From NCBI RefSeq assembly GCF_022846255.1, contig NZ_AP025682.1: DNA of 64,000 nt. One strand, 5' to 3'. Of this stretch, positions 986 to 35,579 are shown one piece after another. A program made the translations under genes and the position numbers. How positions within the stretch are numbered: the first letter of the stretch is position 1; every line of letters begins with the position of its first letter. Source of the DNA: Escherichia coli. GTDB lineage: Bacteria; Pseudomonadota; Gammaproteobacteria; Enterobacterales; Enterobacteriaceae. The notes beneath the pieces are model-generated. The model saw nothing but the letters and a program-made list of their open reading frames with translations. It made no database searches and was not told the origin of the DNA.

Positions 986-1032
986 CCTCGGCACTATGCC
1001 AACATTCGCCAACATCCCCCCTCACTCTGACT

Positions 1033-3318: not shown

Positions 3319-4480
<1,162 letters not shown>

Positions 4481-4481
<1 letters not shown>

Positions 4482-5338
4482 TATTTCACCTCGCGGGAGA
4501 GTAGCTTCCACCAGGCGTCGATGGTCGGGTTTTTCGCCAGCATGACAAAGTCGATATCGCCATGCACTTTGCGCCAGCGCGCCGCCAGCGCCATCATGCG
4601 CACCGAATCCAGACCGTAGTCGATCAGGTTGTCGTCATCGAAGGGTTCATCGGACTCGTCCAGCAACGGCAGGATCACCTCACGCAGCGCCGCTTTGCTG
4701 GCGGGGATAGGTGCTGGCAGCAATTCTTCGGTCATCACCACCCGACCAGAACGTCCGGCCACATATTTCAGCGACATCAAATGCTCGTCACGGCTGAAAT
4801 CGGCCAGCGCATCCGCCACCATAAACGGTTTAATATCGCGCATAAACGCGTCCGTTGCGGTGGTCATACAGCCAATGTGGGCATATACCCCGGTAATAAT
4901 CAGCTGGTTACGTCCACTCTCTTTGAGCATTTGCTCCAGCGGGGAACGATGAAACGCGCTATAGCGCCACTTCACCAGCACCGTGTCGTCGGCATCTGGC
5001 GTCAGGCGATCCACCACCTTTTGCTGTTCCGGCGAACGGGTCAGGCCAGGCCCCCACATATCATTCAACAGCGCCCGATCTTCATCGCTCTGCTCTTTCG
5101 GCTGGGCGGTGTAATAAACCGGGATATTGTGCTGTTTGCAGTAGTCGCGTAGTGCCGCAATATTCGCGATCACCTGCTCCATCATCGGGCAGTTCTCACC
5201 CCAGAAGCTGACAAAATAGTCCTGCATATCATGGATTAACAACGCGGCACGTTGCGGTTCAAAGGCCCAGTCGACTTTATTCTGCGGAATATCGTGAGAC
5301 TCCGGCAGTGCGTAAGCCTGTAATTTTGGAATAGCCAT
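4481..5338 (-). CDS. entB: Isochorismatase / aryl carrier protein EntB
   Basis: 285 aa, MAIPKLQAYALPESHDIPQNKVDWAFEPQRAALLIHDMQDYF...; isochorismatase N-domain with C-terminal carrier-protein region. Confidence 0.95.
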
Positions 5339-5351
5339 CGTGTTCTCTCCT

Positions 5352-6962: not shown

Positions 6963-6971
6963 CCTCGCTCC

Positions 6972-8147
6972 TTAATGCAATCCAAAAACGTTCAACATGG
7001 TAGAAAGTTTGACGCCCGTTTCGCGCCACTCACCCAACGGTGAGGACGCAGGCACAATCCCCGCTCCGGCAAACAGACGCACCTGATTTTCCCGCAGCTT
7101 CGCGCAGCGGATGGTCACCACCCATTCACCGTTACCTTCGCTGTCACACCAACCCACAATGCCGCCAAACAGTTCGCGGTCGAACGGCTCCAGTTCAGCA
7201 ATAACCTGAGTCGCGGCCTGATGCGGGAAACCGCTCAGCGCGGGGGTCGGATGCAGCAGACAAGCCAAAGTCAGTGCGTTTTCTTGCGAATTCGCTTTAC
7301 CTTCAAAGGGAGTTGCGAGATGCCACAGCGTCGGCGTGGTAATCAATTGTGGAGAGGAGGGAACGTGTAACTCACTACTGCGTTTGCGCAGTACCTCTTT
7401 CATCGCCTGAGTCACCAGTTCATGTTCATGGCGATCTTTTTCTGACGCCAGCAGACGATTACCCGCTTCGCGATCGAGCACTTCATCCGGCTGACGACGC
7501 GCGGAACCGGCTAACGGAATGGAGCTAAAACGCTCGCCGTCTTTACGTAGCAGCAGTTCCGGGCTGGCCCCCAGCAGAACGCCACCATCAGCCAGCGGGA
7601 CATGGAAGTTGTAACTAACCGGGTTTTGCGCAATCAACCGTTCCAGCAATACGCCACTATCAATGGCGGCGTCAGTGGTGATATCAATCAACCGTGACAA
7701 CACCACTTTGTCGACCTGCGGCGTGGCGGTAAGTGCGGCGGCGCGAGCAACCATCTGTTCAAACGTGGTTTGTTCCGGAATTGCCTGGCGTTCCACCACG
7801 TTCAGCGACTGGCTGCGGGTAAAACGGCGGGCTGAAGATTGTTTTTCCTGGCGGGAGAACGACTGCCAGGACTCGGGAATATACAGCGATGAAGGCTGAC
7901 GTGGATCGAAGGGAATCGCCCCGACCATCACCGGATTTTTGATGCCCTGCGCTTTGGCATCGGCAAACAACGCGGCGAGTTTTTGCTGGAAGGGACTGTC
8001 GGGCGAATCCCCGTTCACAGCCGGTTCATCGAAGCGGGCGAAACATCCTGACGTCGTAAAACTGCGGTACGGCGACATAAAGAAAAAGCGATTGGGCGCA
8101 AGTGTTGCCATGGTCTGCTGTACTTCCTCAGCCAGTGACGTATCCAT
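6972..8147 (-). CDS. entC: Isochorismate synthase
   Basis: [34 protein letters not shown]...; the track ORF begins 4 codons upstream (MEDD); chorismate-utilising enzyme family. Confidence 0.93.
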
Positions 8148-8176
8148 ATCATCCTCCACAAAATGATAAAGGCTTT

Positions 8177-8195
8177 AATAATGATTATCATTTAT
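8177..8195. promoter_or_regulatory. Fur box in the divergent entC / fepB promoter region
   Basis: aataatgattatcatttat closely matches the Fur consensus GATAATGATAATCATTATC; sits between divergent iron-regulated operons. Confidence 0.75.
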
Positions 8196-8335
8196 ATTTT
8201 CGGTCGCTAACCTAAAAGCAAACGCGCACTATGTCAACTCTTGAGGTAACGCAATCTGCAACTCGGGGTTGCATCTGGTTGTGGTTACAATGAAAATGAG
8301 AAGCATTAACTTCATTAATAACAGGAAGCTGATTT

Positions 8336-9292
8336 GTGAGACTCGTCCCGCTCTACCGCAACGCCCTTCTATTAACAGGACTTTTGCTTTCAGGAATAGC
8401 CGTAGTTCAGGCCGCCGACTGGCCGCGTCAGATTACTGACAGCCGGGGCACTCATACCCTGGAAAGCCAGCCGCAGCGTATTGTTTCCACCAGCGTCACC
8501 CTGACTGGCTCACTGCTGGCGATTGATGCTCCGGTGATCGCCAGCGGCGCGACCACGCCGAATAACCGCGTCGCGGATGACCAGGGCTTTTTACGCCAGT
8601 GGAGCAAGGTGGCGAAAGAACGCAAACTGCAACGGCTCTATATCGGCGAACCGAGCGCCGAAGCCGTTGCCGCGCAAATGCCGGATTTGATTTTAATTAG
8701 CGCAACCGGCGGGGATTCGGCGCTGGCGCTGTATGATCAGCTTTCCACCATCGCCCCGACATTAATCATCAATTACGACGACAAAAGCTGGCAGGCGCTG
8801 TTAACGCAACTTGGCGAAATTACCGGGCATGAGAAACAAGCGGCAGAGCGGATTGCACAGTTTGATAAGCAACTGGCGGCGGCGAAAGAGCAAATCAAAT
8901 TACCGCCGCAGCCGGTCACTGCCATTGTCTATACCGCCGCTGCACACAGTGCCAATCTCTGGACGCCGGAATCAGCACAAGGGCAGATGCTGGAACAACT
9001 CGGCTTTACGTTGGCGAAATTGCCCGCAGGGTTAAACGCCAGCCAAAGCCAGGGCAAACGCCATGACATCATTCAGCTTGGTGGAGAAAATCTGGCTGCA
9101 GGGTTAAATGGCGAGTCACTATTCCTGTTCGCCGGTGATCAGAAAGACGCCGATGCTATTTATGCTAATCCGCTGCTCGCGCACCTGCCTGCAGTACAAA
9201 ACAAGCAGGTTTATGCGCTGGGAACCGAGACGTTCCGTCTGGATTACTACAGCGCCATGCAAGTGCTGGATAGACTTAAGGCGCTGTTTTAA
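8336..9292 (+). CDS. fepB: Periplasmic ferric-enterobactin binding protein
   Basis: 318 aa, [58 protein letters not shown]...; signal peptide; siderophore-binding fold. Confidence 0.95.
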
Positions 9293-9295
9293 GCA

Positions 9296-10546
9296 TTAAC
9301 TGTCGGACGCTGTCACCTGCGGCGGCGTCTGGCGAAAACGTCGCAACTCCACCAGCACCAGCAACAACAACACGCCGATAATCAACAAACCAAAACCGCT
9401 CGCGCTTGCGGAAGCAACCGGTGTCATCATCGCGCCCAAACCGCCCAGCAGCGCCGCGCCTATGGCATCGCCCGTCACGTTTTGTGCCGTCCACAAACCG
9501 TTAATCCGCCCTAACATCGCTTCCGGGGTTTGCGTTTGCAGCATTGTATATTGCAGCAACGAACTAACCGCGCTCAGCCAGCCGAACAGCGCCAGACAAA
9601 CCACGCCTAAAATCCACATCGGCATCAGGCCAAACAAACCAATGGCGAGGAACGATCCCAGCGTGGAAAGCAGCATCAATAACCCTGGTCGCGCGCTATG
9701 TGCCAGCTTACCGCTGGTTAACGCGCCAATAGCCGCGCCGAGCGGGATCGCCGCATAGAGAAAACCAATCTGTGCCGCCGACATCTGCCAGTTGTCAGCC
9801 AGCGCCGGATACAGGACCCGCACCGCGCTCGCCATCGTCAATAAACCACCCAGCAACGCAATCCCTCCCACCAGCGGGCTGGCGAGTAGAAAACGAAATC
9901 CTGCCAGTAATGATTTCAACGGATGCTCACGCGGCTGCGGCGGTGGTGGCAACGCCGGAAGGCTTAACAACGGTAGCAAGGTAATAAACGTGCCCGCCGC
10001 CGCCAGCCCGTAGTTCCAGGCTACGCCGCCGGTCGCCAGCAGTAAACCGCCAATCATGGGCGAAATCACCGATCCCAGACGCACAGTCAACATGGTGATC
10101 GCCCCGGCCTGCATTAGGTTTTCACGCCCTACCAGTGCAGGTGTCGCCGCCAGTAGCGCCGTAACGCCAAGTGATGCGAAAAAACCATCCCATAAACCAA
10201 GTAAATAGATTGCCAGCAAAGACGGCTCCGGCAGCAGCGCATTCAGGCACAGTCCAATGAAGCCAATGCCACAGGTGCCACGCGCCAGCAAAATCACTTT
10301 TTTACGCTCATAGCGATCCGCCAGCACACCGCCGACCATCAGGCCAACAAACATCGCGCCGCCGGTCAGCGTCACCGAAAGCCCCACCTGCCAGGTAGAA
10401 TGCGTCATCATCTGGATCTGCACCGGCACCGCGACGCCGAGCAAACCCAGAGAAACAATTGAGATAAAACGAGCGAGGAATACTGCGCGAAACGCCGGGT
10501 GCGTTTTCAACAGGCTGAGGTTAAGCAGCCAGGATTGTTTATTCAT
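9296..10546 (-). CDS. entS: Enterobactin exporter (MFS)
   Basis: 416 aa MFS transporter, [34 protein letters not shown]...; divergent from fepD. Confidence 0.93.
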
Positions 10547-10619
10547 TACAATGCCTTGCCATCAAATATTTTAAATACCTATTCTTAGGCTGCACATGCT
10601 AACATATCCAAATAAGATC

Positions 10620-10644
10620 GATAACGATAATTAATTTCATTATC
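10620..10644. promoter_or_regulatory. Fur box in the divergent entS / fepD promoter region
   Basis: gataacgataattaatttcattatc is a Fur-consensus-like AT-rich hexamer array; it abuts the first ATG of the fepD track ORF. Confidence 0.7.
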
Positions 10645-10656
10645 ATGGAAGTTCGT

Positions 10657-11661
10657 ATGTCTGGTTCTGTTGCCGTGACACGCGCCATTGCCGTGCCCGG
10701 ATTGCTGTTATTACTGATTATCGCGACGGCATTAAGCCTACTCATTGGGGCAAAATCACTCCCCGCTTCCGTAGTGCTGGAGGCGCTCTCCGGCACCTGC
10801 CAGAGCGCCGACTGCACCATCGTGCTCGACGCACGACTGCCGCGCACCCTTGCCGGTTTACTGGCAGGCGGTGCGCTTGGCCTTGCCGGGGCGTTAATGC
10901 AAACCCTCACCCGAAACCCGCTTGCCGATCCTGGTTTGCTTGGCGTGAACGCCGGTGCCAGTTTTGCCATTGTGCTGGGCGCGGCGCTGTTTGGTTACTC
11001 TTCCGCGCAGGAACAACTGGCGATGGCCTTCGCCGGGGCGCTGGTGGCCTCGTTGATTGTTGCCTTTACCGGCAGCCAGGGCGGCGGGCAGTTAAGTCCG
11101 GTGCGTTTAACCCTGGCAGGCGTGGCGCTGGCGGCGGTGCTGGAAGGGCTGACCAGCGGCATCGCCCTGCTTAATCCCGACGTCTACGATCAACTGCGTT
11201 TCTGGCAAGCCGGTTCGCTGGATATTCGCAATCTACATACCTTAAAAGTGGTGCTGATCCCGGTGCTTACCGCTGGAGCAACTGCGCTATTACTGAGCCG
11301 CGCGCTGAACAGTTTAAGCCTTGGCAGTGACACCGCGACGGCACTGGGCAGTCGCGTAGCGCGCACACAGTTGATTGGTCTGCTGGCAATTACCGTGCTT
11401 TGTGGTAGTGCGACGGCGGTAGTTGGCCCGATTGCCTTTATTGGCCTGATGATGCCGCACATGGCGCGCTGGCTGGTAGGTGCCGATCATCGCTGGTCGC
11501 TGCCCGTCACGCTACTCGCTACCCCTGCCCTGCTGCTGTTTGCCGATATCATTGGGCGGGTGATTGTTCCCGGCGAACTGCGCGTTTCTGTAGTCAGTGC
11601 CTTTATTGGCGCACCAGTGCTGATCTTCCTCGTACGACGTAAAACGCGAGGTGGCGCATGA
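10657..11661 (+). CDS. fepD: Ferric-enterobactin ABC transporter permease
   Basis: MSGSVAVTRAIAVPGLLLLLIIATALSLLIGAKSLPASVV...; FecCD-family permease; start chosen 4 codons inside the track ORF because the upstream ATG lies within the Fur box; gives 334 aa. Confidence 0.9.
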   Translation: MSGSVAVTRAIAVPGLLLLLIIATALSLLIGAKSLPASVVLEALSGTCQSADCTIVLDARLPRTLAGLLAGGALGLAGALMQTLTRNPLADPGLLGVNAGASFAIVLGAALFGYSSAQEQLAMAFAGALVASLIVAFTGSQGGGQLSPVRLTLAGVALAAVLEGLTSGIALLNPDVYDQLRFWQAGSLDIRNLHTLKVVLIPVLTAGATALLLSRALNSLSLGSDTATALGSRVARTQLIGLLAITVLCGSATAVVGPIAFIGLMMPHMARWLVGADHRWSLPVTLLATPALLLFADIIGRVIVPGELRVSVVSAFIGAPVLIFLVRRKTRGGA

Positions 11662-22625: not shown

Positions 22626-22720
22626 GTTCATGCCGGATGCGGCGTGAACGCCTTATCCGGCCTACAAAAAATCTTGCCAATTCAATATATTGCAGGACCA
22701 CGTAGGCCTGATAAGCGTAG
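22626..22720. repeat. BIME: two inverted REP units
   Basis: gccggatgcggcgtgaacgccttatccggcctaca ... gtaggcctgataagcgtagcgcatcaggca, classic REP palindromes in opposite orientation downstream of fepA. Confidence 0.7.
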
Positions 22721-23428: not shown

Positions 23429-24364
23429 TCAAAGCATTTCCCGTGCCTGAGCTGCAATTCCGGCAGCATCAAATCCATGATGCTGACGCAACCACCCACG
23501 ATCCGCCGCTGCGGCATATTCTCCATCCATAATGCCTGCGCGTTTTAATTTGATCCCCGTTCCGGCCTCTGCCAACACTTCCGCGACCAGGCTACCAAGG
23601 CCGCCATTGACGTTATGCTCTTCAACCGTCATCACTGCTTTGCATCCTTTTAACGCTGCCAGCAATGCTTTGGTGTCGCATGGGCGAATCGACGGTACGC
23701 TGACAACTGTAGCCGCGATACCAGACTGCGCTAAAAGTTCTGCGGCATCGACCACTTCATGAACGGTAGAGCCTGTGGCTACCAGCGCCAGTTCGCTGCC
23801 CTCGCGCAAAGTCACCACGGCACCTGGTACAAATCGGTAGTCCTCATCGTGGATTTCCGGCAGGGCTTTACCGTCCATACGGATATAAACAGGCCCCTGA
23901 TAGCGAAGAGCATAATCAATCACCTGACGGCACTCCCGAGGTGAAGACGGGGCAAAGATTTGAATATTGCCGAAACCACGCATAACCGCAATGTCATCAA
24001 TCGCATGATGCGTGCTCGCCAGCGGTCCATAACTCGCCCCGGCATTCAGACCAAACAATTTTACGTTGGTAAAGTTGTAGCAGACATCAACCTTGATTTG
24101 CTCGTTAGCGCGAGCGATAAGAAATGGCGCGGCATTGCAGGTAACAGCCACCTTGCCGCCCAGCGCCAGCCCGGCAGCGGCACCAACCATGCTCTGTTCG
24201 GCAATACCCACATTCACCAGTCGGTCAGGAAATTGCTTAATAAAGGGAGCAATTTTTGCCGTAGACGTTGAATCAGCCACTACAGGCACCAAATCGATCC
24301 CCTCATTTACGGCATCGATAAATGCCTGAACCATCACATTTGCCAGATGTTCACTGTTACGCAT
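23429..24364 (-). CDS. Transketolase C-terminal (pyrimidine-binding) subunit of a split transketolase
   Basis: 311 aa, MRNSEHLANVMVQAFIDAVNEGIDLVPVVADSTSTAKIAPFIKQFPDRLVNVGIAEQSMVGAAAGLALGGK...; overlaps the N-subunit gene by 8 bp. Confidence 0.85.
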   Translation of the reverse strand: MRNSEHLANVMVQAFIDAVNEGIDLVPVVADSTSTAKIAPFIKQFPDRLVNVGIAEQSMVGAAAGLALGGKVAVTCNAAPFLIARANEQIKVDVCYNFTNVKLFGLNAGASYGPLASTHHAIDDIAVMRGFGNIQIFAPSSPRECRQVIDYALRYQGPVYIRMDGKALPEIHDEDYRFVPGAVVTLREGSELALVATGSTVHEVVDAAELLAQSGIAATVVSVPSIRPCDTKALLAALKGCKAVMTVEEHNVNGGLGSLVAEVLAEAGTGIKLKRAGIMDGEYAAAADRGWLRQHHGFDAAGIAAQAREML

Positions 24365-25187
24365 CTTTGAGTTCCTTCAGTGCCTGTTCAATTTCATCGC
24401 CTTTCGGCACCCGGTGATGCCATTCCGCACGCCCTTGTATAAAGGAAATGCCTGCCCCTTTAGTGGTGTGGGCAATCACCACATTCGGTTTGCCTTCCTG
24501 TTTAAGCCCTTCAAGCGTCGCGACAACCGAAGCCATATCATTGCCCTGACATTCGGTAACCTGCATACCGAATGCCAGCCATTTCTCTGCCAGAGGATCG
24601 GTGTTCATGATTTCGCGCGTTGGCCCGGCTAATTGCAGATTATTTTTGTCATTAATAATGACCAGGTTATCAAGCCCGTAATGCGCCGCCGCCAGTGCAG
24701 CTTCCCAGTTACTGCCCTCAGCCAGCTCACCATCGCCAGTAATTAAGAAGATACGACGACGGCTTTGACTTTTTTTCGCCGCCAGCGCAAGTCCTACAGC
24801 CACAGGGAAACCATGTCCCAGTGCTCCGGTATTCAGTTCAATACCTGGCGTTTTTTGCCGAACCGGATGGCCGGGTAAGTGTGAATTTGGCTGCTGATAA
24901 GTGGAAAGCCATTCCAGTGGGAAGAATCCTGCTTCCGCCAGCACGCAGTAGTAACATCCAACAGCATGGCCTTTTGACTGAATGTATATATCCCGGTCAT
25001 CGTCGTGAAGGCGATCCGGGGCGACATTGAGAATACGAAAATAGAGTGCGGTCAGTAATTCAACCTGAGAGAGATCGGCCCCAGTGTGTCCACCTGCCGG
25101 GCTATTGGCATTTAAGCGCACGATATGGCAGCGTACCGCCCGCGCTTTACGCTCAAGGGTCTGGATATCATAGCTATAGGGATTCAT
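24357..25187 (-). CDS. Transketolase N-terminal (thiamine-diphosphate binding) subunit
   Basis: 276 aa with TPP-binding GDGELAEGSNWEAALAAAHYGLDNLVIINDKN motif; first gene of a two-gene unit divergent from the regulator. Confidence 0.85.
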   Translation of the reverse strand: MNPYSYDIQTLERKARAVRCHIVRLNANSPAGGHTGADLSQVELLTALYFRILNVAPDRLHDDDRDIYIQSKGHAVGCYYCVLAEAGFFPLEWLSTYQQPNSHLPGHPVRQKTPGIELNTGALGHGFPVAVGLALAAKKSQSRRRIFLITGDGELAEGSNWEAALAAAHYGLDNLVIINDKNNLQLAGPTREIMNTDPLAEKWLAFGMQVTECQGNDMASVVATLEGLKQEGKPNVVIAHTTKGAGISFIQGRAEWHHRVPKGDEIEQALKELKDA

Positions 25188-25367
25188 TTAATACCTCTGA
25201 ATTTATTTTCAACATGGAATATTTATTCCACCGGGGACTAAAAAAACCAGAAATCCCAGGGCGTTGCGCGGCAAGACTTACGCTGCTGCATCATACTCAG
25301 GAACATTCTGCCTCCTTACACCGTCAGTTACGTGTCCGGGTAATCATCAGTTGACCTGATATCATCT

Positions 25368-25381
25368 TGAATATATATTCA
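25368..25381. promoter_or_regulatory. Palindrome TGAATATATATTCA in the transketolase / regulator divergent promoter region; candidate operator
   Basis: Direct reading; the same 12-bp core GAATATATATTC recurs at 26729..26740 upstream of the kinase-transporter operon. Confidence 0.45.
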
Positions 25382-25549
25382 ATAATGATTCTTTATTCAA
25401 TTATGCCGCCTGTTTTTTATTTTTGTCCATCGCTGATTTTAAGGATTGGTTAAAGTTAGAACTCCATCACACTTAACTGTCTTCTTTTTTCGCGTATGAT
25501 AAAAGCCTCTAAGATAAGGGCGGTACGTTAATGATTTACGGGGAAATAT

Positions 25550-26500
25550 ATGGCTAAGCAGGATGAACAGCGGCTACTGGTGAAGATCGCCACTCTTTAC
25601 TATCTTGAGGGGCGAAAACAGTCTGACATCGCCCAACTTCTCTCGCTTTCTCAGTCATTTATCTCCAGAGCGCTAACCCGTTGCCAGAAAGAAGGCGTGG
25701 TTAAAATCAGCGTTGTCCAGCCGTCAAATATCTTTCTCAATCTGGAAAAAGGCATTGAAGAGCGTTACGGCATTAAACAAGCGATTGTTGTCGATACCGA
25801 AGATGATGCCACTGACCATACCATTAAACGTGCTATCGGCTCTGCCGCCGCGCACTATCTGGAAACGCGTTTAAGACCAAAAGATTTCATTGGCGTCTCT
25901 TCCTGGAGTTCTACGATTCGCGCGATGGTCGATGAAGTTCACGCCCAAAACTTAAAAGCCAGCGGCGTTATTCAGCTGCTGGGCGGCGTGGGGCCAAACG
26001 GCAATGTGCAGGCAACTATTTTGACACAGACCCTGGCCCAGCATCTGAATTGCGAAGCCTGGTTGCTTCCTTCTCAAAGCATTGAAGGTTCGGTAGAAGA
26101 GAAAAAACGCCTGGTGGCAAGCCAGGATGTGGCTGACGTTATCGCCAGATTTGACGACGTCGATATCGCCATTGTCGGCATCGGTATCCTTGAACCCTCG
26201 CAGTTGCTAAAAACCTCGGGCAACTATTATCACGAGGATATGTTACAGGTACTGGCGGATCGCGGTGCTGTGGGCGATATCTGCCTGCACTACTACGATA
26301 AACATGGTCAGCCCGTGTTGCAGGACGATGAAGATCCAGTGATTGGTATGGCACTGGATAAAATCAAAAAATGCCCGAATGTGGTGGCACTGGCGGGCGG
26401 CAAAGACAAAGTTGCCGCCATCAAAGGCGCCATGCAGGGTGGTTATATTGATGTTTTGATCACTGATTTCCCCACCGCCAGAATGCTGATTGCGGATTAA
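25550..26500 (+). CDS. SorC/DeoR-family sugar-binding transcriptional regulator
   Basis: 316 aa; N-terminal HTH (QSDIAQLLSLSQSFISRALTRCQKEGVV) and C-terminal sugar-phosphate-binding domain typical of SorC/DeoR/EryD regulators. Confidence 0.85.
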   Translation: MAKQDEQRLLVKIATLYYLEGRKQSDIAQLLSLSQSFISRALTRCQKEGVVKISVVQPSNIFLNLEKGIEERYGIKQAIVVDTEDDATDHTIKRAIGSAAAHYLETRLRPKDFIGVSSWSSTIRAMVDEVHAQNLKASGVIQLLGGVGPNGNVQATILTQTLAQHLNCEAWLLPSQSIEGSVEEKKRLVASQDVADVIARFDDVDIAIVGIGILEPSQLLKTSGNYYHEDMLQVLADRGAVGDICLHYYDKHGQPVLQDDEDPVIGMALDKIKKCPNVVALAGGKDKVAAIKGAMQGGYIDVLITDFPTARMLIAD

Positions 26501-26523
26501 TCCTCTCCTCCCTTTCTTCTGCC

Positions 26524-26552
26524 CGCCTTTGCGAAAAAATCTTCTCGCAAAG
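26524..26552 (+). terminator. Hairpin downstream of the regulator gene; candidate intrinsic terminator
   Basis: cctttgcgaaaaaatcttctcgcaaagg forms a 9-bp stem; the 3' flank is not strongly T-rich, so strength is uncertain. Confidence 0.35.
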
Positions 26553-26646
26553 GCGCTTGCTTAAAAATCCTTTAATATCAATAAACTGAAATGATTCAAC
26601 AATCCTGTTTCTCGAGGCTTTCTCACCCTGTCACCACGCTTCTAAG

Positions 26647-26662
26647 TGTGATAGCCAGCACA
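26647..26662. promoter_or_regulatory. CRP-like site TGTGA-N6-GCACA upstream of the kinase-transporter operon
   Basis: tgtgatagccagcaca; 4/5 + 5/5 match to the CRP half-sites TGTGA/TCACA; about 190 bp upstream of the kinase start. Confidence 0.35.
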
Positions 26663-26728
26663 TTTGATGATTTTTTCTCTAGCTCAGGAAGAATAATCTG
26701 GCTAAGGTATAAATAAATAATCAGCATC

Positions 26729-26740
26729 GAATATATATTC
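26729..26740. promoter_or_regulatory. Second copy of the GAATATATATTC palindrome; candidate operator of the kinase-transporter-dehydrogenase operon
   Basis: Direct reading; identical 12-bp core to 25369..25380. Confidence 0.45.
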
Positions 26741-26850
26741 ACGCCTTAACACAAAATGTCACAGCAGGGCCTGATGAAGTAATAACGTGACCATGAGGAA
26801 CGCCTCATCTCCTTCCACGCCAGGATGCAATGTGACTCAGGAGACTACCT

Positions 26851-28371
26851 ATGTTTGCAGGAAATAAAGAGTTCGTTGTTGCGTTGGATGAGGGTACCAC
26901 CAATGTAAAAGCCATCGCACTTGATGGTTTCGGTAACGTGGTGGCGAAGTTTTCTCAACCACTGGCTATTCAGACGCCACGTGAAGGCTGGGTTGAGCAA
27001 TCCGGGGAAGCGTTAATCTCTGCCTCGCTTGATGTTATTGCCCAGGCCATCAACCACGTGGGGGCAGAAAATGTAGCGGCTCTGGCTATCAGTAATCAGC
27101 GTGAAACGGCTATCGGCTGGTATCGTCAGAGTGGAAAACCACTCAATGCGGCGATTACCTGGCAATGCACGCGCAGTGCAGAGTTTTGTGAAACACTTCG
27201 TCGCGAGGGCAAAGAGCAGCAAATTAAAACGACTACAGGCCTGCCTATCGCCCCGCTATTTTCCGCGTCCAAGATGCGTTGGCTACTGGAATCTACACCT
27301 GAGGGTGTGCAACTTGCCGACCAGGGTGAAATTTGTCTCGGCACCATTGATGCCTGGTTGCTATGGAACTTGACTGCTGGCGATTCATTTTGCTGCGACT
27401 ACTCTAACGCCGCGCGAACTCAATTACTTAACCTGAAAACAGGCGAGTGGGATGAGGAAATGCTGGCGTTGTTTCACATCCCACGCGCTGCATTGCCAGA
27501 AATTAAACCTTCCAGTGGCCTGTTCGGTTATACCCGAGGACTTAAAACAATTCCGGATGGTATTCCCGTCATGGCGATGGTGGGCGATTCTCACGCCGCT
27601 CTTTTTGGTCATGCGTTGGGAGAAGCGGGATGTGTGAAGGCGACCTATGGGACCGGTTCTTCCGTCATGGCCCCCGTCAACTCTGCTCAGTGTGATATCG
27701 CCACACTTGCCACAACCATTGCCTGGCATGATGGCGAAAATATTATTTACGGTCTGGAAGGAAATATCCCCCACACCGGCGATGCCGTGGCATGGATGGC
27801 TGACAGCACCGGTTTAAGTGAACTGACAGACGCGGAGCTGGCCCACGAACTGAATACCCTGCCAGCCTCAGTGGATTCGACTATGGGTGTTTATTTTGTT
27901 CCTGCTCTCACTGGCCTGGGCGCGCCATGGTGGGATGACAGCGCTCGCGGCGTGGTGTGTGGCTTAAGCCGTGGCGTAAAGCGCGCGCATTTGATTCGTG
28001 CCGCAATGGAATCAATCACTTATCAAATTGCAGATGTAGTGGAGGCAATGCAACAGCATGATGATTTTCACTTATCGGCGTTAATGGTGGATGGCGGCCC
28101 GACCAAAAATGACTGGTTGATGCAATATCAGGCGGATCTGCTGGGTTGCCCGGTGATGCGCAGTGATGTGCCAGAGCTTTCAGCCATTGGTGCGGGCCTG
28201 CTCGCCCGCAAAGCGCTTATCCCCGGTACCGTTGCAGATTTAAAAGCGTTATTAACTGAACACAGTGAATTTAAACCGGACATGGCGCGTCATCAGCGAC
28301 TGCAAAAGAGATGGCAGGAGTGGCGTCATGCGGTAAACAGAACATTATGGAAACCGGCATCGTCAATTTGA
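26851..28371 (+). CDS. FGGY-family carbohydrate kinase (xylulokinase / glycerol kinase-like)
   Basis: 506 aa, MFAGNKEFVVALDEGTTNVKAIALDGFGNVVAKF...; FGGY N- and C-terminal domain signatures. Confidence 0.85.
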   Translation: MFAGNKEFVVALDEGTTNVKAIALDGFGNVVAKFSQPLAIQTPREGWVEQSGEALISASLDVIAQAINHVGAENVAALAISNQRETAIGWYRQSGKPLNAAITWQCTRSAEFCETLRREGKEQQIKTTTGLPIAPLFSASKMRWLLESTPEGVQLADQGEICLGTIDAWLLWNLTAGDSFCCDYSNAARTQLLNLKTGEWDEEMLALFHIPRAALPEIKPSSGLFGYTRGLKTIPDGIPVMAMVGDSHAALFGHALGEAGCVKATYGTGSSVMAPVNSAQCDIATLATTIAWHDGENIIYGLEGNIPHTGDAVAWMADSTGLSELTDAELAHELNTLPASVDSTMGVYFVPALTGLGAPWWDDSARGVVCGLSRGVKRAHLIRAAMESITYQIADVVEAMQQHDDFHLSALMVDGGPTKNDWLMQYQADLLGCPVMRSDVPELSAIGAGLLARKALIPGTVADLKALLTEHSEFKPDMARHQRLQKRWQEWRHAVNRTLWKPASSI

Positions 28372-28474
28372 CGAACAAGACTAACCAACGGAAGGAGAAT
28401 ACCGGCCCATAAATAATTCAGGCTTTACGTTGTTTCACCGTACCCGACAATAACAACACAGAGAGAACATTGTC

Positions 28475-29410
28475 ATGAAATTACGTTTAACACTGTTAAC
28501 CGCTGCGACCCTGACTGCTCTTTCTTTTTCTGCTCATGCGGTAGAAAAAGGAACCATTATGATTATGGTCAATTCACTGGATAATCCTTATTACGCCTCG
28601 GAAGCGAAAGGTGCCAGTGAAAAAGCCCAGCAACTGGGATATAAAACGACCATTCTTTCTCATGGTGAAGATGTCAAAAAACAGAATGAACTGATCGATA
28701 CTGCAATTGGTAAAAAAGTTCAGGGCATTATTTTAGATAATGCCGACTCCACTGCCAGTGTTGCAGCCATTGAAAAAGCAAAAAAAGCAGGTATTCCCGT
28801 TATATTAATTAATCGCGAAATACCTGTGGATGATGTTGCACTGGTGCAAATTACCCATAATAACTTCCAGGCTGGCTCGGAAGTTGCCAACGTATTTGTC
28901 GAGAAAATGGGAGAGAAAGGAAAATATGCCGAACTCACCTGTAATCTTGCTGATAATAATTGCGTAACTCGCTCGAAATCTTTCCATCAGGTCATTGACC
29001 AGTTCCCTGAAATGGTCAGCGTGGCGAAGCAAGATGCCAAAGGCACGTTAATTGATGGCAAACGGATAATGGACAGTATTCTGCAAGCCCATCCCGATGT
29101 AAAAGGGGTGATTTGTGGTAATGGTCCGGTTGCACTGGGAGCTATCGCAGCACTGAAAGCAGCCAATCGCAATGACGTTATTGTTGTCGGCATTGATGGC
29201 AGTAACGATGAGCGCGATGCCGTGAAAGCCGAATCATTGCAGGCTACCGTGATGTTACAAGCGCAAGCCATTGCCGCGCAGGGGGTTACCGATTTGGATA
29301 ATTACCTGCAAAAAGGAGTTAAACCAGCCAAACAGCGGGTGATGTTCCGCGGCATTCTGATAACCAAAGATAACGCAGATAAAGTCCAGGATTTCAATAT
29401 CAAATCCTGA
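28475..29410 (+). CDS. Periplasmic sugar-binding protein of an ABC transporter (RbsB-like)
   Basis: 311 aa with signal peptide MKLRLTLLTAATLTALSFSAHA; periplasmic binding protein type I fold. Confidence 0.85.
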   Translation: MKLRLTLLTAATLTALSFSAHAVEKGTIMIMVNSLDNPYYASEAKGASEKAQQLGYKTTILSHGEDVKKQNELIDTAIGKKVQGIILDNADSTASVAAIEKAKKAGIPVILINREIPVDDVALVQITHNNFQAGSEVANVFVEKMGEKGKYAELTCNLADNNCVTRSKSFHQVIDQFPEMVSVAKQDAKGTLIDGKRIMDSILQAHPDVKGVICGNGPVALGAIAALKAANRNDVIVVGIDGSNDERDAVKAESLQATVMLQAQAIAAQGVTDLDNYLQKGVKPAKQRVMFRGILITKDNADKVQDFNIKS

Positions 29411-29456
29411 TCCCAGGTCGTTGCGCCCTCACAATGAGGGCGCAGAGGAGAATATT

Positions 29457-30077
29457 ATGGATAAAAAAGTCTGGCTGGCGCTGGCAATTCTGAGCCTGGG
29501 TGGATGTCGCATCGTCTCGCAGCAGGAACTTGCCGATCTCAAATCCCCGCCTAATCCTCATATGGCAAATATCGATCAGACCTGGCAGAAAAATATCGTG
29601 CCGCAGGTGGTAGAAAATGCACGTCCGGTTGCGGAGTTAATGGCGGCGCTACAGGCAGAAAAAGATGTCGATGCTGCCTGTAAAACGCTGGGCTATCGTT
29701 CTCAGGAAGAAAACCCGTGTATTTTCTACGTTAAGGTCGAAGGTGGCATCACCAATATTGATGCGAAATCCCGTAGCGGAAAAATGACCATCACAGATAT
29801 CAGCGGCACAAATATTGTCGTGCAGACGGGGCCAACTCTTCGCGGCACGCTTCTGCGAGATGCATATAAAGGTGCAAGCTATGAGCATTTTAACGATCAG
29901 GTTTTATTTGGTGAATATGGTCGTGCTATCAATGAGCAAGCCATCAATATGATTCAGTCGGCAAAGCTTAAAACCGGGGAAACGGTTCAGGTTTATGGCG
30001 TATTTTCTGCATGGGATATTCCGCAAACTATCCCGGATATAACGCCTGCGAAAATAGCCAGGGCGGGAGGCGAGTAA
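29457..30077 (+). CDS. DUF2291-like predicted lipoprotein embedded in the ABC transporter operon
   Basis: MDKKVWLALAILSLGGC... with a lipobox LSLGGC; start chosen at the internal Met with the signal peptide rather than the track start at 29421. Confidence 0.65.
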   Translation: MDKKVWLALAILSLGGCRIVSQQELADLKSPPNPHMANIDQTWQKNIVPQVVENARPVAELMAALQAEKDVDAACKTLGYRSQEENPCIFYVKVEGGITNIDAKSRSGKMTITDISGTNIVVQTGPTLRGTLLRDAYKGASYEHFNDQVLFGEYGRAINEQAINMIQSAKLKTGETVQVYGVFSAWDIPQTIPDITPAKIARAGGE

Positions 30078-30078
30078 T

Positions 30079-31623
30079 ATGTTGCCGCAAGAAATTGACA
30101 CCCCCCAGACTGATGAATCACCTGTAATCATAGAAACGCATGACTTATCGCGTATTTATCCGGGTGTGGTGGCGTTAGATAACGTGAATTACCGTGTCTA
30201 TCGCAATAGAGTGAATGTGCTTATTGGTGAAAACGGTGCGGGTAAATCCACAATGATGAAAATGCTGGCGGGGGTTGAAACACCTTCCTCAGGCAAGATC
30301 ATTCTTGATGGTAAAGAAGTTACCCTAAATTCTACCCATCAGGCCGAAAAACATGGAATTAGTATCATTTTTCAGGAACTGAATTTATTCCCGAATATGA
30401 ATGTCATAGATAACATTTTCATGGCGAATGAATTTTTTCAGAAAGGGAAGATTAACGAAAAATATCAGTATGAATTAGCCAAATCTTTATTAGAGAGACT
30501 GGAGTTGGACGTTGATCCCTATACCCAACTGGGAGAACTTGGTATTGGTCATCAGCAACTGGTGGAGATTGCCCGTGCCCTTTCTAAAGATACCCGGGTA
30601 CTGATTATGGATGAACCGACCTCGGCCCTCAGCCAGTCGGAAGTCAAAGTACTTTTCAATGTGATCGCACAACTGAAGCGCCGTGGTGTCACCATCATTT
30701 ATATCTCCCACCGTCTGGAAGAGTTGATGGAGATTGGCGATTTCATCACCATTTTCCGTGATGGTCGCTTTATTAGTGAACGCGCAGTGAGCGATGCCAG
30801 TATTCCGTGGATCATCGCACAAATGGTCGGTGATAAGAAAAAACATTTTGATTATCAACCAGCTACACAAGGTGACACTGTACTGGCGGTACTGGGGTTA
30901 ACGGCGCTGCATCCCAGCGGTGGTTACAAACTCAATGATGTGACATTCAACCTGCGTAAAGGCGAAGTTATCGGCATTTACGGCTTGCTGGGCGCAGGAC
31001 GTACTGAGCTATTTAAAGGACTGGTGGGCCTGATGCCCTGTCAGAGTGGGAAGATCCTGCTTAATGGTGAAACCATCGACAAATGCCATTTCCAGGCGCG
31101 GCTCAAAAAGGGGCTGGCGTTGGTGCCAGAAGATCGCCAGGGCGAAGGCGTCGTTCAGATGATGTCGATTCAGTCCAATATGACGCTATCCGATTTCAGC
31201 CTGCAAGGTTTTCGCCGTGCCTGGAAATGGCTGAATCCGCAAAAAGAGAGCGCCAGTGTGAAAGAGATGATCCAGCAACTGGCGATCAAAGTCAGTGATG
31301 CCGAACTCCCTATTACCTCACTCAGCGGCGGTAACCAGCAAAAAGTGGTACTTGGCAAAGCGTTGATGACCCAGCCACAGGTGGTGTTTCTTGATGAACC
31401 CACACGCGGCATTGATGTTGGCGCAAAAACCGACGTCTATCAGCTGGTGGGAAAAATGGCACAACAGGGGCTGGCAGTCATGTTCTCTTCTTCAGAACTC
31501 GATGAAGTCATGGCACTGGCAGATCGCATTCTGGTGATGGCTGATGGCCGTATTACCGCTGATCTACCCCGGGGCGAAGTCACCCGAGAGAAACTGATCG
31601 CGGCTTCAACACCTCAAGATTAA
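30079..31623 (+). CDS. Sugar ABC transporter ATPase with duplicated ATP-binding domains (RbsA-like)
   Basis: 514 aa; Walker A GENGAGKST in the first half, a second nucleotide-binding domain, signature LSGGNQQK. Confidence 0.9.
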   Translation: MLPQEIDTPQTDESPVIIETHDLSRIYPGVVALDNVNYRVYRNRVNVLIGENGAGKSTMMKMLAGVETPSSGKIILDGKEVTLNSTHQAEKHGISIIFQELNLFPNMNVIDNIFMANEFFQKGKINEKYQYELAKSLLERLELDVDPYTQLGELGIGHQQLVEIARALSKDTRVLIMDEPTSALSQSEVKVLFNVIAQLKRRGVTIIYISHRLEELMEIGDFITIFRDGRFISERAVSDASIPWIIAQMVGDKKKHFDYQPATQGDTVLAVLGLTALHPSGGYKLNDVTFNLRKGEVIGIYGLLGAGRTELFKGLVGLMPCQSGKILLNGETIDKCHFQARLKKGLALVPEDRQGEGVVQMMSIQSNMTLSDFSLQGFRRAWKWLNPQKESASVKEMIQQLAIKVSDAELPITSLSGGNQQKVVLGKALMTQPQVVFLDEPTRGIDVGAKTDVYQLVGKMAQQGLAVMFSSSELDEVMALADRILVMADGRITADLPRGEVTREKLIAASTPQD

Positions 31624-31640
31624 TCAGGCTGGAATTTCTT

Positions 31641-32708
31641 ATGAATCAGAAATATATGATCTATATGTACCTGTTGAAAGCCAGAACGTTTATCGCTCTG
31701 CTGTTAGTGATCGCCTTCTTTAGCGTGATGGTGCCTAACTTCCTGACGGCCTCTAACCTGCTGATTATGACTCAACACGTTGCGATTACCGGGCTGCTGG
31801 CAATCGGAATGACGCTGGTGATCCTGACAGGCGGCATCGATCTTTCCGTCGGCGCGGTAGCGGGGATCTGCGGAATGGTTGCCGGGGCTCTGCTAACAAA
31901 CGGCCTGCCATTGTGGAGCGGCGATATTATTTTCTTCAACGTACCGGAAGTGATCCTCTGCGTGGCGGTATTTGGCATTTTAGTGGGACTGGTGAATGGT
32001 GCGGTAATCACCCGCTTTGGTGTCGCGCCCTTTATCTGCACCCTCGGTATGATGTACGTCGCCCGTGGCTCTGCCCTGCTGTTTAATGATGGCAGCACTT
32101 ACCCCAATCTCAACGGCATGGAGGCACTGGGCAACACGGGTTTCGCCACCCTTGGTTCTGGCACGTTTTTAGGCGTTTATTTGCCAATCTGGCTGATGAT
32201 TGGCTTTTTGATTTTAGGCTACTGGATCACGACTAAAACGCCGCTCGGTCGTTATATCTATGCCATTGGTGGCAATGAATCTGCCGCGCGACTGGCAGGC
32301 GTACCCATCGTAAAAGTCAAAGTGTTCGTCTATGCGTTCTCCGGATTATGCGCCGCATTTGTCGGTTTGATTGTTGCCTCGCAGCTGCAAACCGCTCACC
32401 CAATGACCGGCAATATGTTCGAAATGGATGCTATCGGTGCCACGGTTCTTGGTGGAACTGCGCTGGCAGGTGGTCGGGGACGTGTCTCTGGCTCGATTAT
32501 CGGTGCCTTTGTCATTGTCTTCCTCGCCGATGGCATGGTGATGATGGGGGTCAGTGATTTCTGGCAAATGGTCATTAAAGGCCTCGTTATCGTCACCGCC
32601 GTGGTAGTCGATCAGTTCCAGCAAAAATTGCAAAACAAAGTCATTTTGATGCGTCGCCATGAAGAAAAGATGGCCGCCGCACCTGCCGTAAAACCGCTTT
32701 CCAGTTAA
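31641..32708 (+). CDS. Sugar ABC transporter permease (RbsC-like)
   Basis: 355 aa polytopic membrane protein of the monosaccharide ABC permease family. Confidence 0.85.
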   Translation: MNQKYMIYMYLLKARTFIALLLVIAFFSVMVPNFLTASNLLIMTQHVAITGLLAIGMTLVILTGGIDLSVGAVAGICGMVAGALLTNGLPLWSGDIIFFNVPEVILCVAVFGILVGLVNGAVITRFGVAPFICTLGMMYVARGSALLFNDGSTYPNLNGMEALGNTGFATLGSGTFLGVYLPIWLMIGFLILGYWITTKTPLGRYIYAIGGNESAARLAGVPIVKVKVFVYAFSGLCAAFVGLIVASQLQTAHPMTGNMFEMDAIGATVLGGTALAGGRGRVSGSIIGAFVIVFLADGMVMMGVSDFWQMVIKGLVIVTAVVVDQFQQKLQNKVILMRRHEEKMAAAPAVKPLSS

Positions 32709-32761
32709 TTAACATCATTCCGCCGGGCATTAAATTGCCCGGCTTATACAGGGGAAAAAAT

Positions 32762-33559
32762 ATGCAACGTAATTTTCAGGGTAAGACTGTAGTTATTACC
32801 GGGGCATGCCGGGGAATTGGGGCCGGGATCGCTGAACGCTTCGCCCGCGATGGCGCAAATCTGGTGATGGTTTCTAACGCTGCACGCGTGCATGAAACTG
32901 CTGAGCAACTGCGCCAATGTTATCAGGCTGACATTTTGTCATTAGAAGTCGATGTGACAGATGAAGCGCAAGTACAGGCACTCTATGAACAAGCGGCTGC
33001 ACGTTTTGGCAGCATCGATGTTTCCATTCAGAATGCAGGCATTATCACCATCGATTATTTTGATCGAATGCCGGCTGCTGATTTCGAAAAAGTGCTGGCG
33101 GTGAACACTACGGCAGTCTGGCTCTGCTGCCGGGAAGCAGCCAAATATATGGTGAAACAAAATCACGGCTGCCTGATCAACACCTCTTCTGGCCAGGGAC
33201 GTCAGGGGTTTATCTATACCCCACACTATGCAGCCAGCAAAATGGGTGTGATCGGCATTACGCAAAGCCTGGCGCACGAGTTAGCGCAGTGGAATATCAC
33301 TGTTAACGCCTTCTGCCCTGGTATTATCGAAAGCGAAATGTGGGACTACAACGACCGCGTATGGGGAGAAATTCTCAGTACCGATGACAAGCGTTATGGC
33401 AAAGGCGAGCTTATGGCGGAATGGGTGGAAGGTATTCCGATGAAGCGTGCCGGTAAACCTGAAGATGTTGCCGGACTGGTTGCCTTCCTCGCCTCTGACG
33501 ATGCGCGTTATCTCACCGGTCAAACCATCAACATCGACGGCGGCCTGATTATGTCGTAA
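32762..33559 (+). CDS. Short-chain dehydrogenase/reductase (polyol / sugar dehydrogenase-like)
   Basis: MQRNFQGKTVVITGACRGIGAGIAERFA...; TGxxxGIG Rossmann motif and catalytic YxxxK; ATG at 32762 preferred over the upstream TTG-initiated track start. Confidence 0.8.
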   Translation: MQRNFQGKTVVITGACRGIGAGIAERFARDGANLVMVSNAARVHETAEQLRQCYQADILSLEVDVTDEAQVQALYEQAAARFGSIDVSIQNAGIITIDYFDRMPAADFEKVLAVNTTAVWLCCREAAKYMVKQNHGCLINTSSGQGRQGFIYTPHYAASKMGVIGITQSLAHELAQWNITVNAFCPGIIESEMWDYNDRVWGEILSTDDKRYGKGELMAEWVEGIPMKRAGKPEDVAGLVAFLASDDARYLTGQTINIDGGLIMS

Positions 33560-33591
33560 TGCCCCTGCGGGCTACTAAGAGAGATATCAAA

Positions 33592-34377
33592 ATGATCGCA
33601 AAAGATTTTGCTCAACAATTGTTTGATCTCCACGATCGCGTCGCCTTTGTCACTGGCGCAGGTAGCGGTATCGGACAAATGATCGCTCTGGCTTTAGCCA
33701 GCGCAGGCGCACGAGTGGTGTGTTTTGATCTACGGGAAGATGGCGGACTCAAAGAGACGGTTAATCATATCGAAGCACTTGGCGGACAAGCCTTGTATTA
33801 CACGGGCGATGTTCGGGAATTGAGAGATCTTCGCGCAGCAGTCGCTCTGGCAAAAACACATTTTGGTCGTCTGGATATTGCCGTAAACGCCGCTGGAATC
33901 GCTAACGCAAACCCGGCGCTGGAGATGGAAAGCGAGCAATGGCAACGCGTTATCGATATCAACCTGACTGGTGTGTGGAATTCCTGTAAGGCGGAAGCCG
34001 AGTTAATGGTAGAGAACGGAGGCGGCTCGATTATAAATATTGCGTCAATGTCCGGGATTATCGTCAATCGCGGTCTGGAACAGGCTCACTACAACAGCTC
34101 CAAAGCAGGCGTGATTCATTTATCTAAAAGTCTTGCGATGGAATGGGTGAGTAAAGGGATCCGTGTGAACTCAATCAGTCCAGGATATACCGCAACACCA
34201 ATGAATACCCGACCTGAAATGGTGCATCAGACTCGGGAGTTTGAAATCCAGACGCCGATTCAGCGGATGGCGAAAGTGGAAGAGATGGCGGGTCCAGCGC
34301 TGTTCCTTGCCAGCGATGCGGCGTCGTTCTGCACTGGTGTTGATCTGGTGGTCGATGGTGGTTTTGTCTGCTGGTAA
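33592..34377 (+). CDS. Second short-chain dehydrogenase/reductase
   Basis: MIAKDFAQQLFDLHDRVAFVTGAGSGIGQMIALALA...; SDR motifs; start at 33592 preferred for its upstream gagag Shine-Dalgarno, with 33559 as alternative. Confidence 0.8.
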   Translation: MIAKDFAQQLFDLHDRVAFVTGAGSGIGQMIALALASAGARVVCFDLREDGGLKETVNHIEALGGQALYYTGDVRELRDLRAAVALAKTHFGRLDIAVNAAGIANANPALEMESEQWQRVIDINLTGVWNSCKAEAELMVENGGGSIINIASMSGIIVNRGLEQAHYNSSKAGVIHLSKSLAMEWVSKGIRVNSISPGYTATPMNTRPEMVHQTREFEIQTPIQRMAKVEEMAGPALFLASDAASFCTGVDLVVDGGFVCW

Positions 34378-34486
34378 AAATGGTTTCGCCCGCAGCCATC
34401 ACTGACCGCGGGCGAAAGTGTAAAGCAGGTGCCTTACCACCCTGACCTGACAACCGGATATGCGGGGATTGCTCCCCGCACAACGG

Positions 34487-34639
34487 CTACTTCTTCGGTT
34501 CGTAAGCGAGAACAACCTTAAACTCAATATTACGTTCCTTTACGGTAAACTCACACAGCGAGTCTCCGACCAGAAGCGTAAATCCCAGCACCGTTAAACA
34601 CAGCACTATGACTGCCACAAGGGCATATTTCGTCAGCAT
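34487..34639 (-). CDS. hokE: Hok-family small membrane toxin, copy 1 (variant with V at the position where copy 2 has A)
   Basis: [50 protein letters not shown], 50 aa; Hok family signature; overlapped by mok-like ORF 34551..34739. Confidence 0.8.
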
Positions 34640-34739
34640 GTTTATATTGCCTCCATGCGAAGAAGGGACTACCATCCAAATTGTTCAGGTTTGGGTAGGT
34701 AGCCCCAAGGTTGATAGAAATATCGTCCTGGGGCTTCAT
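34551..34739 (-). CDS. mokE: mok-like overlapping reading frame, copy 1
   Basis: 62-aa ORF overlapping the hok start in a different frame, as in hok/mok/sok loci. Confidence 0.5.
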
Positions 34740-34990
34740 CTTTCCAGACCTCAGAGTAAACCTGAAACCGGAAAGCTTCAGGCACCCGCAGTTATCTTAC
34801 CCTTCCTTAGCAAAATAGCTGTTTATTTATACAGTGAGTCCTGTTTAGGACTTTTCACCTGTATTATCGCCCATGCCAGTAAAACGAAATCGCCCGCAGC
34901 CATCTCTGACTGCGGGCGAAAGTGTAAAGCAGGTGCCTTACCATCCTGACCTGACAACCGGATATGCGGGGATTACTCCCCGCACAACGG

Positions 34991-35143
34991 CTACTTCTTC
35001 GGTTCGTAAGCGAGAACAGCCTTAAACTCAATATTACGTTCCTTTACGGTAAACTCACACAGCGAGTCTCCGACCAGAAGCGTAAATCCCAGCACCGTTA
35101 AACACAGCACTATGACTGCCACAAGGGCATATTTCGTCAGCAT
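34991..35143 (-). CDS. hokE: Hok-family small membrane toxin, copy 2
   Basis: [50 protein letters not shown], 50 aa; the copy adjacent to ybdK. Confidence 0.85.
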
Positions 35144-35243
35144 GTTTATATTGCCTCCATGCGAAGAAGGGACTACCATCCAAATTGTTCAGGTTTGGGT
35201 AGGTAGCCCCAGGGTTGATAGAAATATCGTCCTGGGGCTTCAT
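35055..35243 (-). CDS. mokE: mok-like overlapping reading frame, copy 2
   Basis: 62-aa ORF overlapping the hok start in a different frame. Confidence 0.5.
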
Positions 35244-35579
35244 CTTTCCAGACCTCAGAGTAAACCTGAAACCGGAAAGCTTCAGGCACCCGCAGTTATC
35301 TTACCCTTCCTTAGCAAAATAGCTGTTTATTTATACAGTGAGTCCTGTTTCGGACTTCTCATTTAATCAACTGAAGCTGAACCCGTTTTTTTCTGCATGC
35401 CTCAATCGTCAAAATTCTTCGCCGCCAGCCAGCTCTGCCATAACTTGTCACATTGCAAAAGTAGCCAAATTGCTTCAGTCACAATCAGTTCTCCATCACC
35501 AAAAAAAGAAACATTCCAGAACTTCCGCATCTCACCCAGCCGCTCCCACTTCTATACTGAATAGAAAACGCCAACATAA

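Follow-up and report, generated by a model that had tools for sequence, protein, structure and literature searches.

The DUF2291 Gene and Its Product

The window, by which we mean the whole 64,000-nucleotide stretch of Escherichia coli DNA analysed here, carries at 29457..30077 (+) the gene of a lipoprotein of Pfam family DUF2291 (PF10054), set inside a sugar ABC transporter operon. The open reading frame (ORF), of 206 codons plus TAA, lies between the gene of a periplasmic sugar-binding protein (28475..29410, +; Pfam Peripla_BP_4) and that of an ATPase with two fused nucleotide-binding domains (NBDs) (30079..31623, +; two Pfam ABC_tran matches, and of xylose/ribose type in NCBIfam, below the equivalog cut-offs). 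A single RbsC-like permease (31641..32708, +; BPD_transp_2, by Pfam and NCBIfam) is encoded after the ATPase. The 206-amino-acid (aa) product begins MDKKVWLALAILSLGGC and continues RIVSQQ. Its match to DUF2291, at 148.2 bits where the gathering score is 22.5 (E 3.4e-43), spans profile positions 2-199 of 200; it is far above chance and is the sole Pfam match of the protein. Pfam describes the family as a "predicted periplasmic lipoprotein", and the protein is recorded in RefSeq, with 0 aa differences, as WP_000359101.1, "DUF2291 family protein". There is no NCBIfam model for DUF2291. The family is of modest size, with 513 cluster representatives found at E <= 1e-3 in an exhaustive profile search.

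An earlier sequence-only reading of this DNA had described a lipoprotein of about 205 aa with a lipobox, placed between the binding-protein and ATPase genes, and had proposed that a Hidden Markov Model (HMM) search would assign it to DUF2291 or a similar family. The ORF and the Pfam match bear out both the position and the family, and the lipobox is present; the length is 206 aa. That reading also had the stop codon overlapping the ATPase start. The sequence there is TAA (30075-30077), one t, and then the ATPase ATG (30079-30081), that is, a 1-nt gap and no overlap, but the close coupling itself is real and conserved.

The DUF2291 ATG is preceded by a GAGGAG Shine-Dalgarno sequence about 7 nt to its 5' side, in a spacer of 46 nt that separates it from the stop codon of the binding-protein gene. 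The same spacer holds an 11-bp GC-rich hairpin at 29421..29445 (+), abutting the Shine-Dalgarno sequence, with an RNA folding energy of -25.3 kcal/mol (z = -3.75 against shuffled sequences). It probably acts as an mRNA stabiliser or as an attenuator, fixing how much binding protein is made relative to the membrane components. A longer reading from a TTG at 29421 (218 aa) was rejected: this TTG coincides with the first base of the hairpin and has no ribosome-binding site, and the ATG is the start used by RefSeq and by all homologues. A spurious ORF was rejected because the homology is overwhelming, and a gene on the opposite strand was rejected because no ORF of at least 80 aa lies on the minus strand beneath the DUF2291 gene.

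Gene Order across Bacteria

DUF2291 loci were collected by exact look-ups of divergent representatives and by one genome scan. Of the 78 loci obtained, the first 75 (L001-L075) are those counted below. The scan yielded mostly Rhizobiales and sphingomonads, together with Propionispora, Clostridium magnum, Propionivibrio and an Anaerolineales metagenome-assembled genome. A genome scan with a fragment of the Thermotoga maritima member, TM0957, returned no loci, and the TM0957 locus was reached through a protein search and exact look-up.

In every locus that is long enough, the genes for a double-NBD ATPase and then a single permease lie directly 3' of DUF2291. Seventy-two of the 75 loci, spread over six or more phyla, have the ATPase start no more than 13 nt from the DUF2291 stop; in 66 of them it falls within -4 to +2 nt, the two ORFs either overlapping at ATGA or standing 1-2 nt apart. 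The remaining three are a contig of 1 kb, a truncated one with a called 4-nt overlap, and L073, in which the DUF2291 ORF is truncated. The sequence-only reading had said that a lack of conservation in orthologous transporter operons would speak against a transport role; the 72 loci show the opposite arrangement, and its interpretation of the gene as a lipoprotein of no assigned function, associated with transport by its position, is supported. The binding-protein gene is less fixed. It is usually directly upstream of DUF2291, but in sphingomonads and Anaerolineales it follows the permease gene. The TM0957 locus of T. maritima reads rbsK, rbsD, binding protein, TM0957, ATPase, permease, split transketolase and FGGY kinase.

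The other transporter proteins at these loci are close to those of E. coli. The binding proteins are 44-51% identical to that of E. coli and the permeases 51-60%, both at nearly equal lengths, and the window permease (31641-32708) is 56-60% identical to the permeases of DUF2291-linked operons in other phyla. The DUF2291 proteins themselves are 26-35% identical to the E. coli protein. Judged by these identities, the DUF2291-linked transporters are one orthologous clade, and DUF2291 is the fastest-evolving part of an otherwise well-conserved transporter.

The composition of the remainder is that of the CUT2 importers of the RbsABC, XylFGH and AraFGH type, which likewise combine a Peripla_BP_4 protein, an ATPase with two fused NBDs and a BPD_transp_2 permease. 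The DUF2291 clade differs from them in having a fourth component, predicted to be lipid-anchored and extracytoplasmic. The window transporter also stands apart in its NCBIfam equivalog scores, none of which reaches the cut-off for a ribose, xylose or arabinose component. From its place in the loci, DUF2291 is very probably an accessory subunit of this transporter clade.

Predicted Membrane Anchor and Conserved Fold

By direct reading, the first 17 codons (29457..29507, +) encode a lipoprotein signal peptide ending in LGGC, with a basic n-region (K3, K4), a hydrophobic h-region and the lipobox L14-G15-G16-C17, the Cys codon being 29505-29507. Cys17, which is predicted to be lipidated and to become residue 1 of the mature protein, is followed by the conserved R-I-V motif. 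The lipobox Cys is kept in 99 of 113 family representatives. Among those 99, the residue at +2 after the Cys is K or R in 67 and Asp in none, the residue at +3 is I, V or L in 89, and the residue at +4 is V, L or I in 79. Conserved residues just after the anchor are unusual for lipoprotein tethers, and their presence suggests a defined membrane-proximal contact. Some of the homologues that lack the Cys have, read by eye, a hydrophobic N-terminal stretch resembling a membrane anchor, and DUF2291 homologues also occur in monoderm lineages (Clostridium). These two observations point to a location on the cytoplasmic membrane.

An AlphaFold2 model built from a 113-sequence alignment has a pLDDT (predicted local distance difference test) of 95.4. 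After the signal peptide it places about five helices (residues 22-78) and then a barrel of five strands, the third and fourth of them separated by a long helix. This is an oligonucleotide/oligosaccharide-binding (OB) fold. TM0957, the solved member of the family, has the same construction of a helical N-terminal part and an OB barrel; its crystal structure, 2F4I, has been in the Protein Data Bank (PDB) since 2006, a point absent from the sequence-only reading. In structural alignments the window protein is only about 13-15% identical to TM0957. Structure searches returned 2F4I and generic OB folds, with no mutarotase or esterase fold among them. The TOBE domains of ABC ATPases and ModG resemble DUF2291 only at the level of any OB fold. 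They are cytoplasmic and fused to the ATPase, and there is no sequence relationship between them and DUF2291.

The family signature is mostly polar and aromatic, comprising W43, S105-R106, Q123, T131, R134-D135, D144, N/D147-Q148 and N159. The core of it forms the block Q123-x-G-P-V-x-x-G-T-x-x-R134-D135...F-x-D-F-x-[ND]-Q148...A-L-N159. The G-P, R-D and Q of this block are invariant or nearly so in the 113 other representatives and are missing from TM0957. There are also tandem DUF2291 proteins (P0132, P0150 and P0154) of 600-720 aa, with 3-4 domains and a hydrophobic N-terminal segment. In P0132, the W and R-D are found in all three repeats and the Q in two of the three. The only locus recovered for the tandem proteins is that of P0132 (L007, 916-2718), and there the tandem gene is directly 5' of the ATPase and permease genes. 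The tandem proteins are a natural multivalent version of the lipoprotein.

The E. coli Island

The transporter genes of the window belong to an island at 23429-34377, for whose genes RefSeq gives generic names only. The island begins with a split transketolase on the minus strand, with its C-terminal subunit at 23429-24364 and its N-terminal subunit at 24357-25187 (ORFs, NCBIfam transketolase halves and RefSeq), divergent from the gene of a SorC/DeoR-type sugar-binding transcriptional regulator at 25550..26500 (+; Pfam Sugar-bind, RefSeq). Next is an FGGY-family sugar kinase at 26851..28371 (+; Pfam FGGY_N and FGGY_C), which scores below the glycerol-kinase cut-off and is a candidate apulose kinase. 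The binding protein, DUF2291, ATPase and permease genes follow, and two short-chain dehydrogenase/reductase (SDR) genes at 32762-33559 (+) and 33559/33592-34377 (+) close the operon (both by Pfam adh_short, NCBIfam and RefSeq). The two SDRs are a candidate reductase/dehydrogenase pair that would convert an aldose to a ketose.

The site of the island is between entD and hokE/ybdK. E. coli chromosomes share the surrounding 9.1 kb at 98.7% identity, and 628 of the 5426 complete genomes (~12%) have it.

Probable Substrate of the Importer

D-apiose, a sugar of pectin, is within reach of bacteria that live in the gut or in association with plants. A link to it comes from the Rhizobium locus L021, in which the DUF2291 transporter is flanked by genes for a RuBisCO-like protein, a DUF1537-type kinase and two dehydrogenases, one of the PGDH_C and one of the Gfo/Idh/MocA kind. 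With 782 bits, the RuBisCO-like protein exceeds the 700-bit equivalog cut-off of NCBIfam for OiaX, and the best match of the kinase is the 3-oxo-isoapionate kinase OiaK. These flanking enzymes are those of the oxidative D-apiose pathway, for which enzyme names and EC numbers are given in PMC11747546 and PMC12994016, both with reference to Carter et al. 2018; apulose kinase is EC 2.7.1.233 (bioRxiv 10.64898/2026.02.12.705490).

The binding proteins may point to the same sugar. The best PDB match of the E. coli binding protein is Rhizobium etli RHE_PF00037 (5IBQ/4RY0), at E 2e-79 and 48% identity over the full length without gaps, and the next best, the T. maritima ribose-binding protein 2FN8, is well behind. 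RHE_PF00037 is itself about 90% identical to the binding protein of L021. We take 5IBQ to be the complex with alpha-D-apiose. The title of 4RY0 names a ribose transporter binding protein, and with the title of 2FN8 it makes ribose the second documented ligand of the binding-protein clade.

The genes accompanying DUF2291 transporters fall largely into two sets. An oxidative apiose set (ApnO-like, OiaK-like, RuBisCO-like and Gfo-type) is present at 55 of the 75 loci and the split transketolase, usually with the FGGY kinase as in E. coli, at 14, a 55:14 tally that is biased because 66 genome loci come from one scan seeded with alpha-proteobacterial motifs. No locus has both sets, and six have neither. 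Three of these six (L006-L008) are on contigs of 1-6 kb. The others are L023, with a fucose-isomerase-like gene and an SDR; L065, on a 7.5-kb contig, with an FGGY kinase and an SDR; and L013 from Sphingomonas turrisvirgatae (89-11118), with two nucleoside-hydrolase-like (Sde182_NH-like) genes, a TonB-dependent receptor and a DeoR regulator. L078, a divergent locus outside the tally, is of the transketolase type, and the pairing of split transketolase and FGGY kinase is found beside DUF2291 transporters from Thermotoga to E. coli. Ribose or nucleoside genes occur at two loci, one of which also has the transketolase module. These two contexts, in Thermotoga and L013, suggest a role with ribose or ribosides in some lineages. 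The best reading of the whole is that the importer clade serves pentofuranose catabolism, of D-apiose in most loci and of ribose or ribosides in a few.

A transketolase-dependent route, in which apiose is converted to apulose and then acted on by apulose kinase and an apulose-4-phosphate transketolase, was reportedly described by Carter et al. in 2018. An apiose 1-reductase has long been known from Aerobacter (Klebsiella) aerogenes. Among D-apiose catabolic loci, the orthologous DUF2291 transporters stand beside OiaX, OiaK-like, ApnO-like and Gfo-type genes or beside a split transketolase and FGGY kinase; the E. coli island differs from them in having two SDRs and no isomerase or RuBisCO-like gene. 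In E. coli, the two SDRs could take apiose by way of apiitol to apulose, which the FGGY kinase would phosphorylate and the split transketolase cleave. Most plausibly, then, the island is a D-apiose utilisation locus, and we think it likely that the E. coli system imports D-apiose. No apulose-specific NCBIfam model matches the window proteins.

Erythritol or polyol transport had been suspected at first, by way of Sinorhizobium meliloti mptABCDE and Rhizobium leguminosarum eryEFG, for which only an unnamed hypothetical gene is mentioned upstream of eryEFG; it was set aside after the apiose link was found.

Proposed Role of DUF2291 and Alternatives

The explanation we favour, with somewhat better than even confidence in it as a whole, is that DUF2291 is a lipid-anchored, extracytoplasmic, clade-specific fourth component of a CUT2-type pentofuranose importer. 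The importer would consist of the binding protein, DUF2291, the double-NBD ATPase and the single permease, with DUF2291 presumably co-translated with the ATPase and permease. DUF2291 would sit on the outer face of the cytoplasmic membrane beside the permease, held close to it by the C-[KR]-[IVL]-[VLI] stretch just after the anchor. A putative patch formed by its polar and aromatic residues would bind either the sugar or the sugar-loaded binding protein, and the subunit would in this way assist substrate capture or hand-over to the permease. This specific mechanism of binding and hand-over is put forward tentatively, and we give it rather less than an even chance. A stronger form, that DUF2291 is an obligatory sugar-binding subunit, would amount to a distinct ABC importer architecture in which a membrane-tethered OB-fold receptor, sometimes in 3-4 tandem copies, works with a Venus-flytrap binding protein in pentofuranose uptake. 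That form seems doubtful to us.

Several points weigh against these proposals. We infer the transport role of DUF2291 from gene context only. The bias of the locus tally toward the oxidative set bears on the extent of the apiose connection, and the case for apiose in E. coli is indirect. The name "apulose kinase" is absent among the best 120 homologues of the FGGY kinase, all of which are at least 69% identical to it and carry generic names. The CUT2 importers of E. coli K-12 encoded by rbs, ara and xyl have three components and are not known to include a DUF2291 protein, which places DUF2291 outside the core CUT2 mechanism. Since TM0957 does without the G-P, R-D and Q, the fold does not require these residues, and function may not depend on them in every member of the family. 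Finally, under the +2 rule of the Lol system, an Asp after the lipidated Cys retains a lipoprotein in the inner membrane, and other residues direct it to the outer membrane. With Arg at +2, the E. coli protein lacks this Lol avoidance signal, and the rule predicts that it is delivered to the outer membrane and hence away from the permease.

The last point leads to an alternative in which DUF2291 is a periplasmic lipoprotein anchored in the outer membrane, apart from the inner-membrane complex, and captures the sugar close to the outer membrane, whether free or in a borate or oligosaccharide form, or shuttles it to the soluble binding protein. Besides the Arg after Cys17 and the lack of Asp at +2 in any family member, the conserved polar residues would suit a small-ligand site of this kind. 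However, the homologues in monoderm Clostridium and those with a hydrophobic N-terminus in place of the Cys can only sit on the cytoplasmic membrane. Coupled translation with the ATPase and permease suggests production in stoichiometry with the inner-membrane parts, and the conserved motif after the anchor suggests a specific membrane-proximal contact, so that we regard an outer-membrane protein as improbable. Still less probable, in our estimate, is a periplasmic enzyme that prepares the substrate, as an apiose anomerase or ring-form isomerase or by freeing apiose from borate esters, analogous to mutarotases of the RbsD/FucU type. Apiose cyclises into four furanose forms, and mutarotases of that type are encoded in other sugar operons; the association of DUF2291 with a furanose-specific transporter clade and its invariant Arg-Asp and Gln residues would agree with such an activity. 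But Pfam gives DUF2291 only, the fold searches give nothing beyond 2F4I and generic OB folds, and neither shows any sequence or fold similarity to the mutarotases RbsD/FucU, RhaM/YiiL and GalM. There is no conserved His, Tyr or Glu of the sort typical of sugar mutarotases, TM0957 lacks the R-D-Q set, and membrane anchoring together with strict coupling to the ATPase gene would be unexpected for a soluble enzyme.

It is also conceivable that DUF2291 binds no substrate and is a factor for assembly, stability or regulation, which stabilises the permease homodimer or gates the access of the binding protein, the conserved patch being a protein-protein interface. The strict co-occurrence and coupling fit this idea, as do the conserved membrane-proximal motif and the faster-evolving, peripheral character of the protein. 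The natural tandem versions of 3-4 domains suggest an oligomeric scaffold, and TM0957 keeps the fold and not the polar residues. Yet the conserved positions are mainly polar or charged, unlike the hydrophobic patch of stable interfaces, and other CUT2 importers are not known to need such a factor for their assembly. We rate a purely structural or regulatory factor as unlikely, on a par with the outer-membrane protein.

The entity itself is already known, as an exact database protein, a curated DUF and a solved structure, and it belongs to no functionally characterised family. The sequence-only reading held that it had no assigned function, and this agrees with the searchable literature, in which no paper assigns a function to DUF2291, names the family or discusses 2F4I. 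That DUF2291 is strictly coupled to a single orthologous CUT2 clade, that this clade is linked to apiose and ribose catabolism, and that the E. coli entD-hokE island may be read as an apiose locus all appear to be unreported in that literature. What results is a well-posed gap: an extracytoplasmic importer component, never missing in the collected loci and coupled to the ATPase, with a solved structure and a probable substrate. E. coli strains that carry the island are genetically tractable and could give a function to the whole DUF, and they could show whether CUT2 importers use accessory receptors. Were the sugar-binding fourth subunit real, type I/CUT2 importers would gain an extracytoplasmic accessory component of a new kind, and a DUF with a crystal structure since 2006 would gain a function. 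The analysis also suggests that the entD-hokE island, in its ~12% of complete E. coli genomes, is a D-apiose locus.

Other Features of the Window

Compared with the corresponding island of E. coli MCJCHV-1 (L001), the kinase gene has 31 nt and 9 aa differences and the ATPase gene 36 nt and 11 aa, and the DUF2291, permease and regulator genes have 1 to 6 nt differences and 0 aa. This patchy divergence inside one operon may be the result of recombination. Just downstream of the island, at 34377-35291, the hokE/sok toxin-antitoxin unit is duplicated in tandem as a 300-nt repeat at 504-nt spacing and 97% identity, with Rfam sok matches at 34631-34787 and 35135-35291 (-); the annotation of MCJCHV-1 shows this duplication as well. 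Two further Rfam matches are unrelated to DUF2291. One is to the sRNA ES036 (CssrF) at 22668-22709 (+), just upstream of or at the start of an entD-like ORF, and the other is a tRNA gene at 56831-56904 (-).

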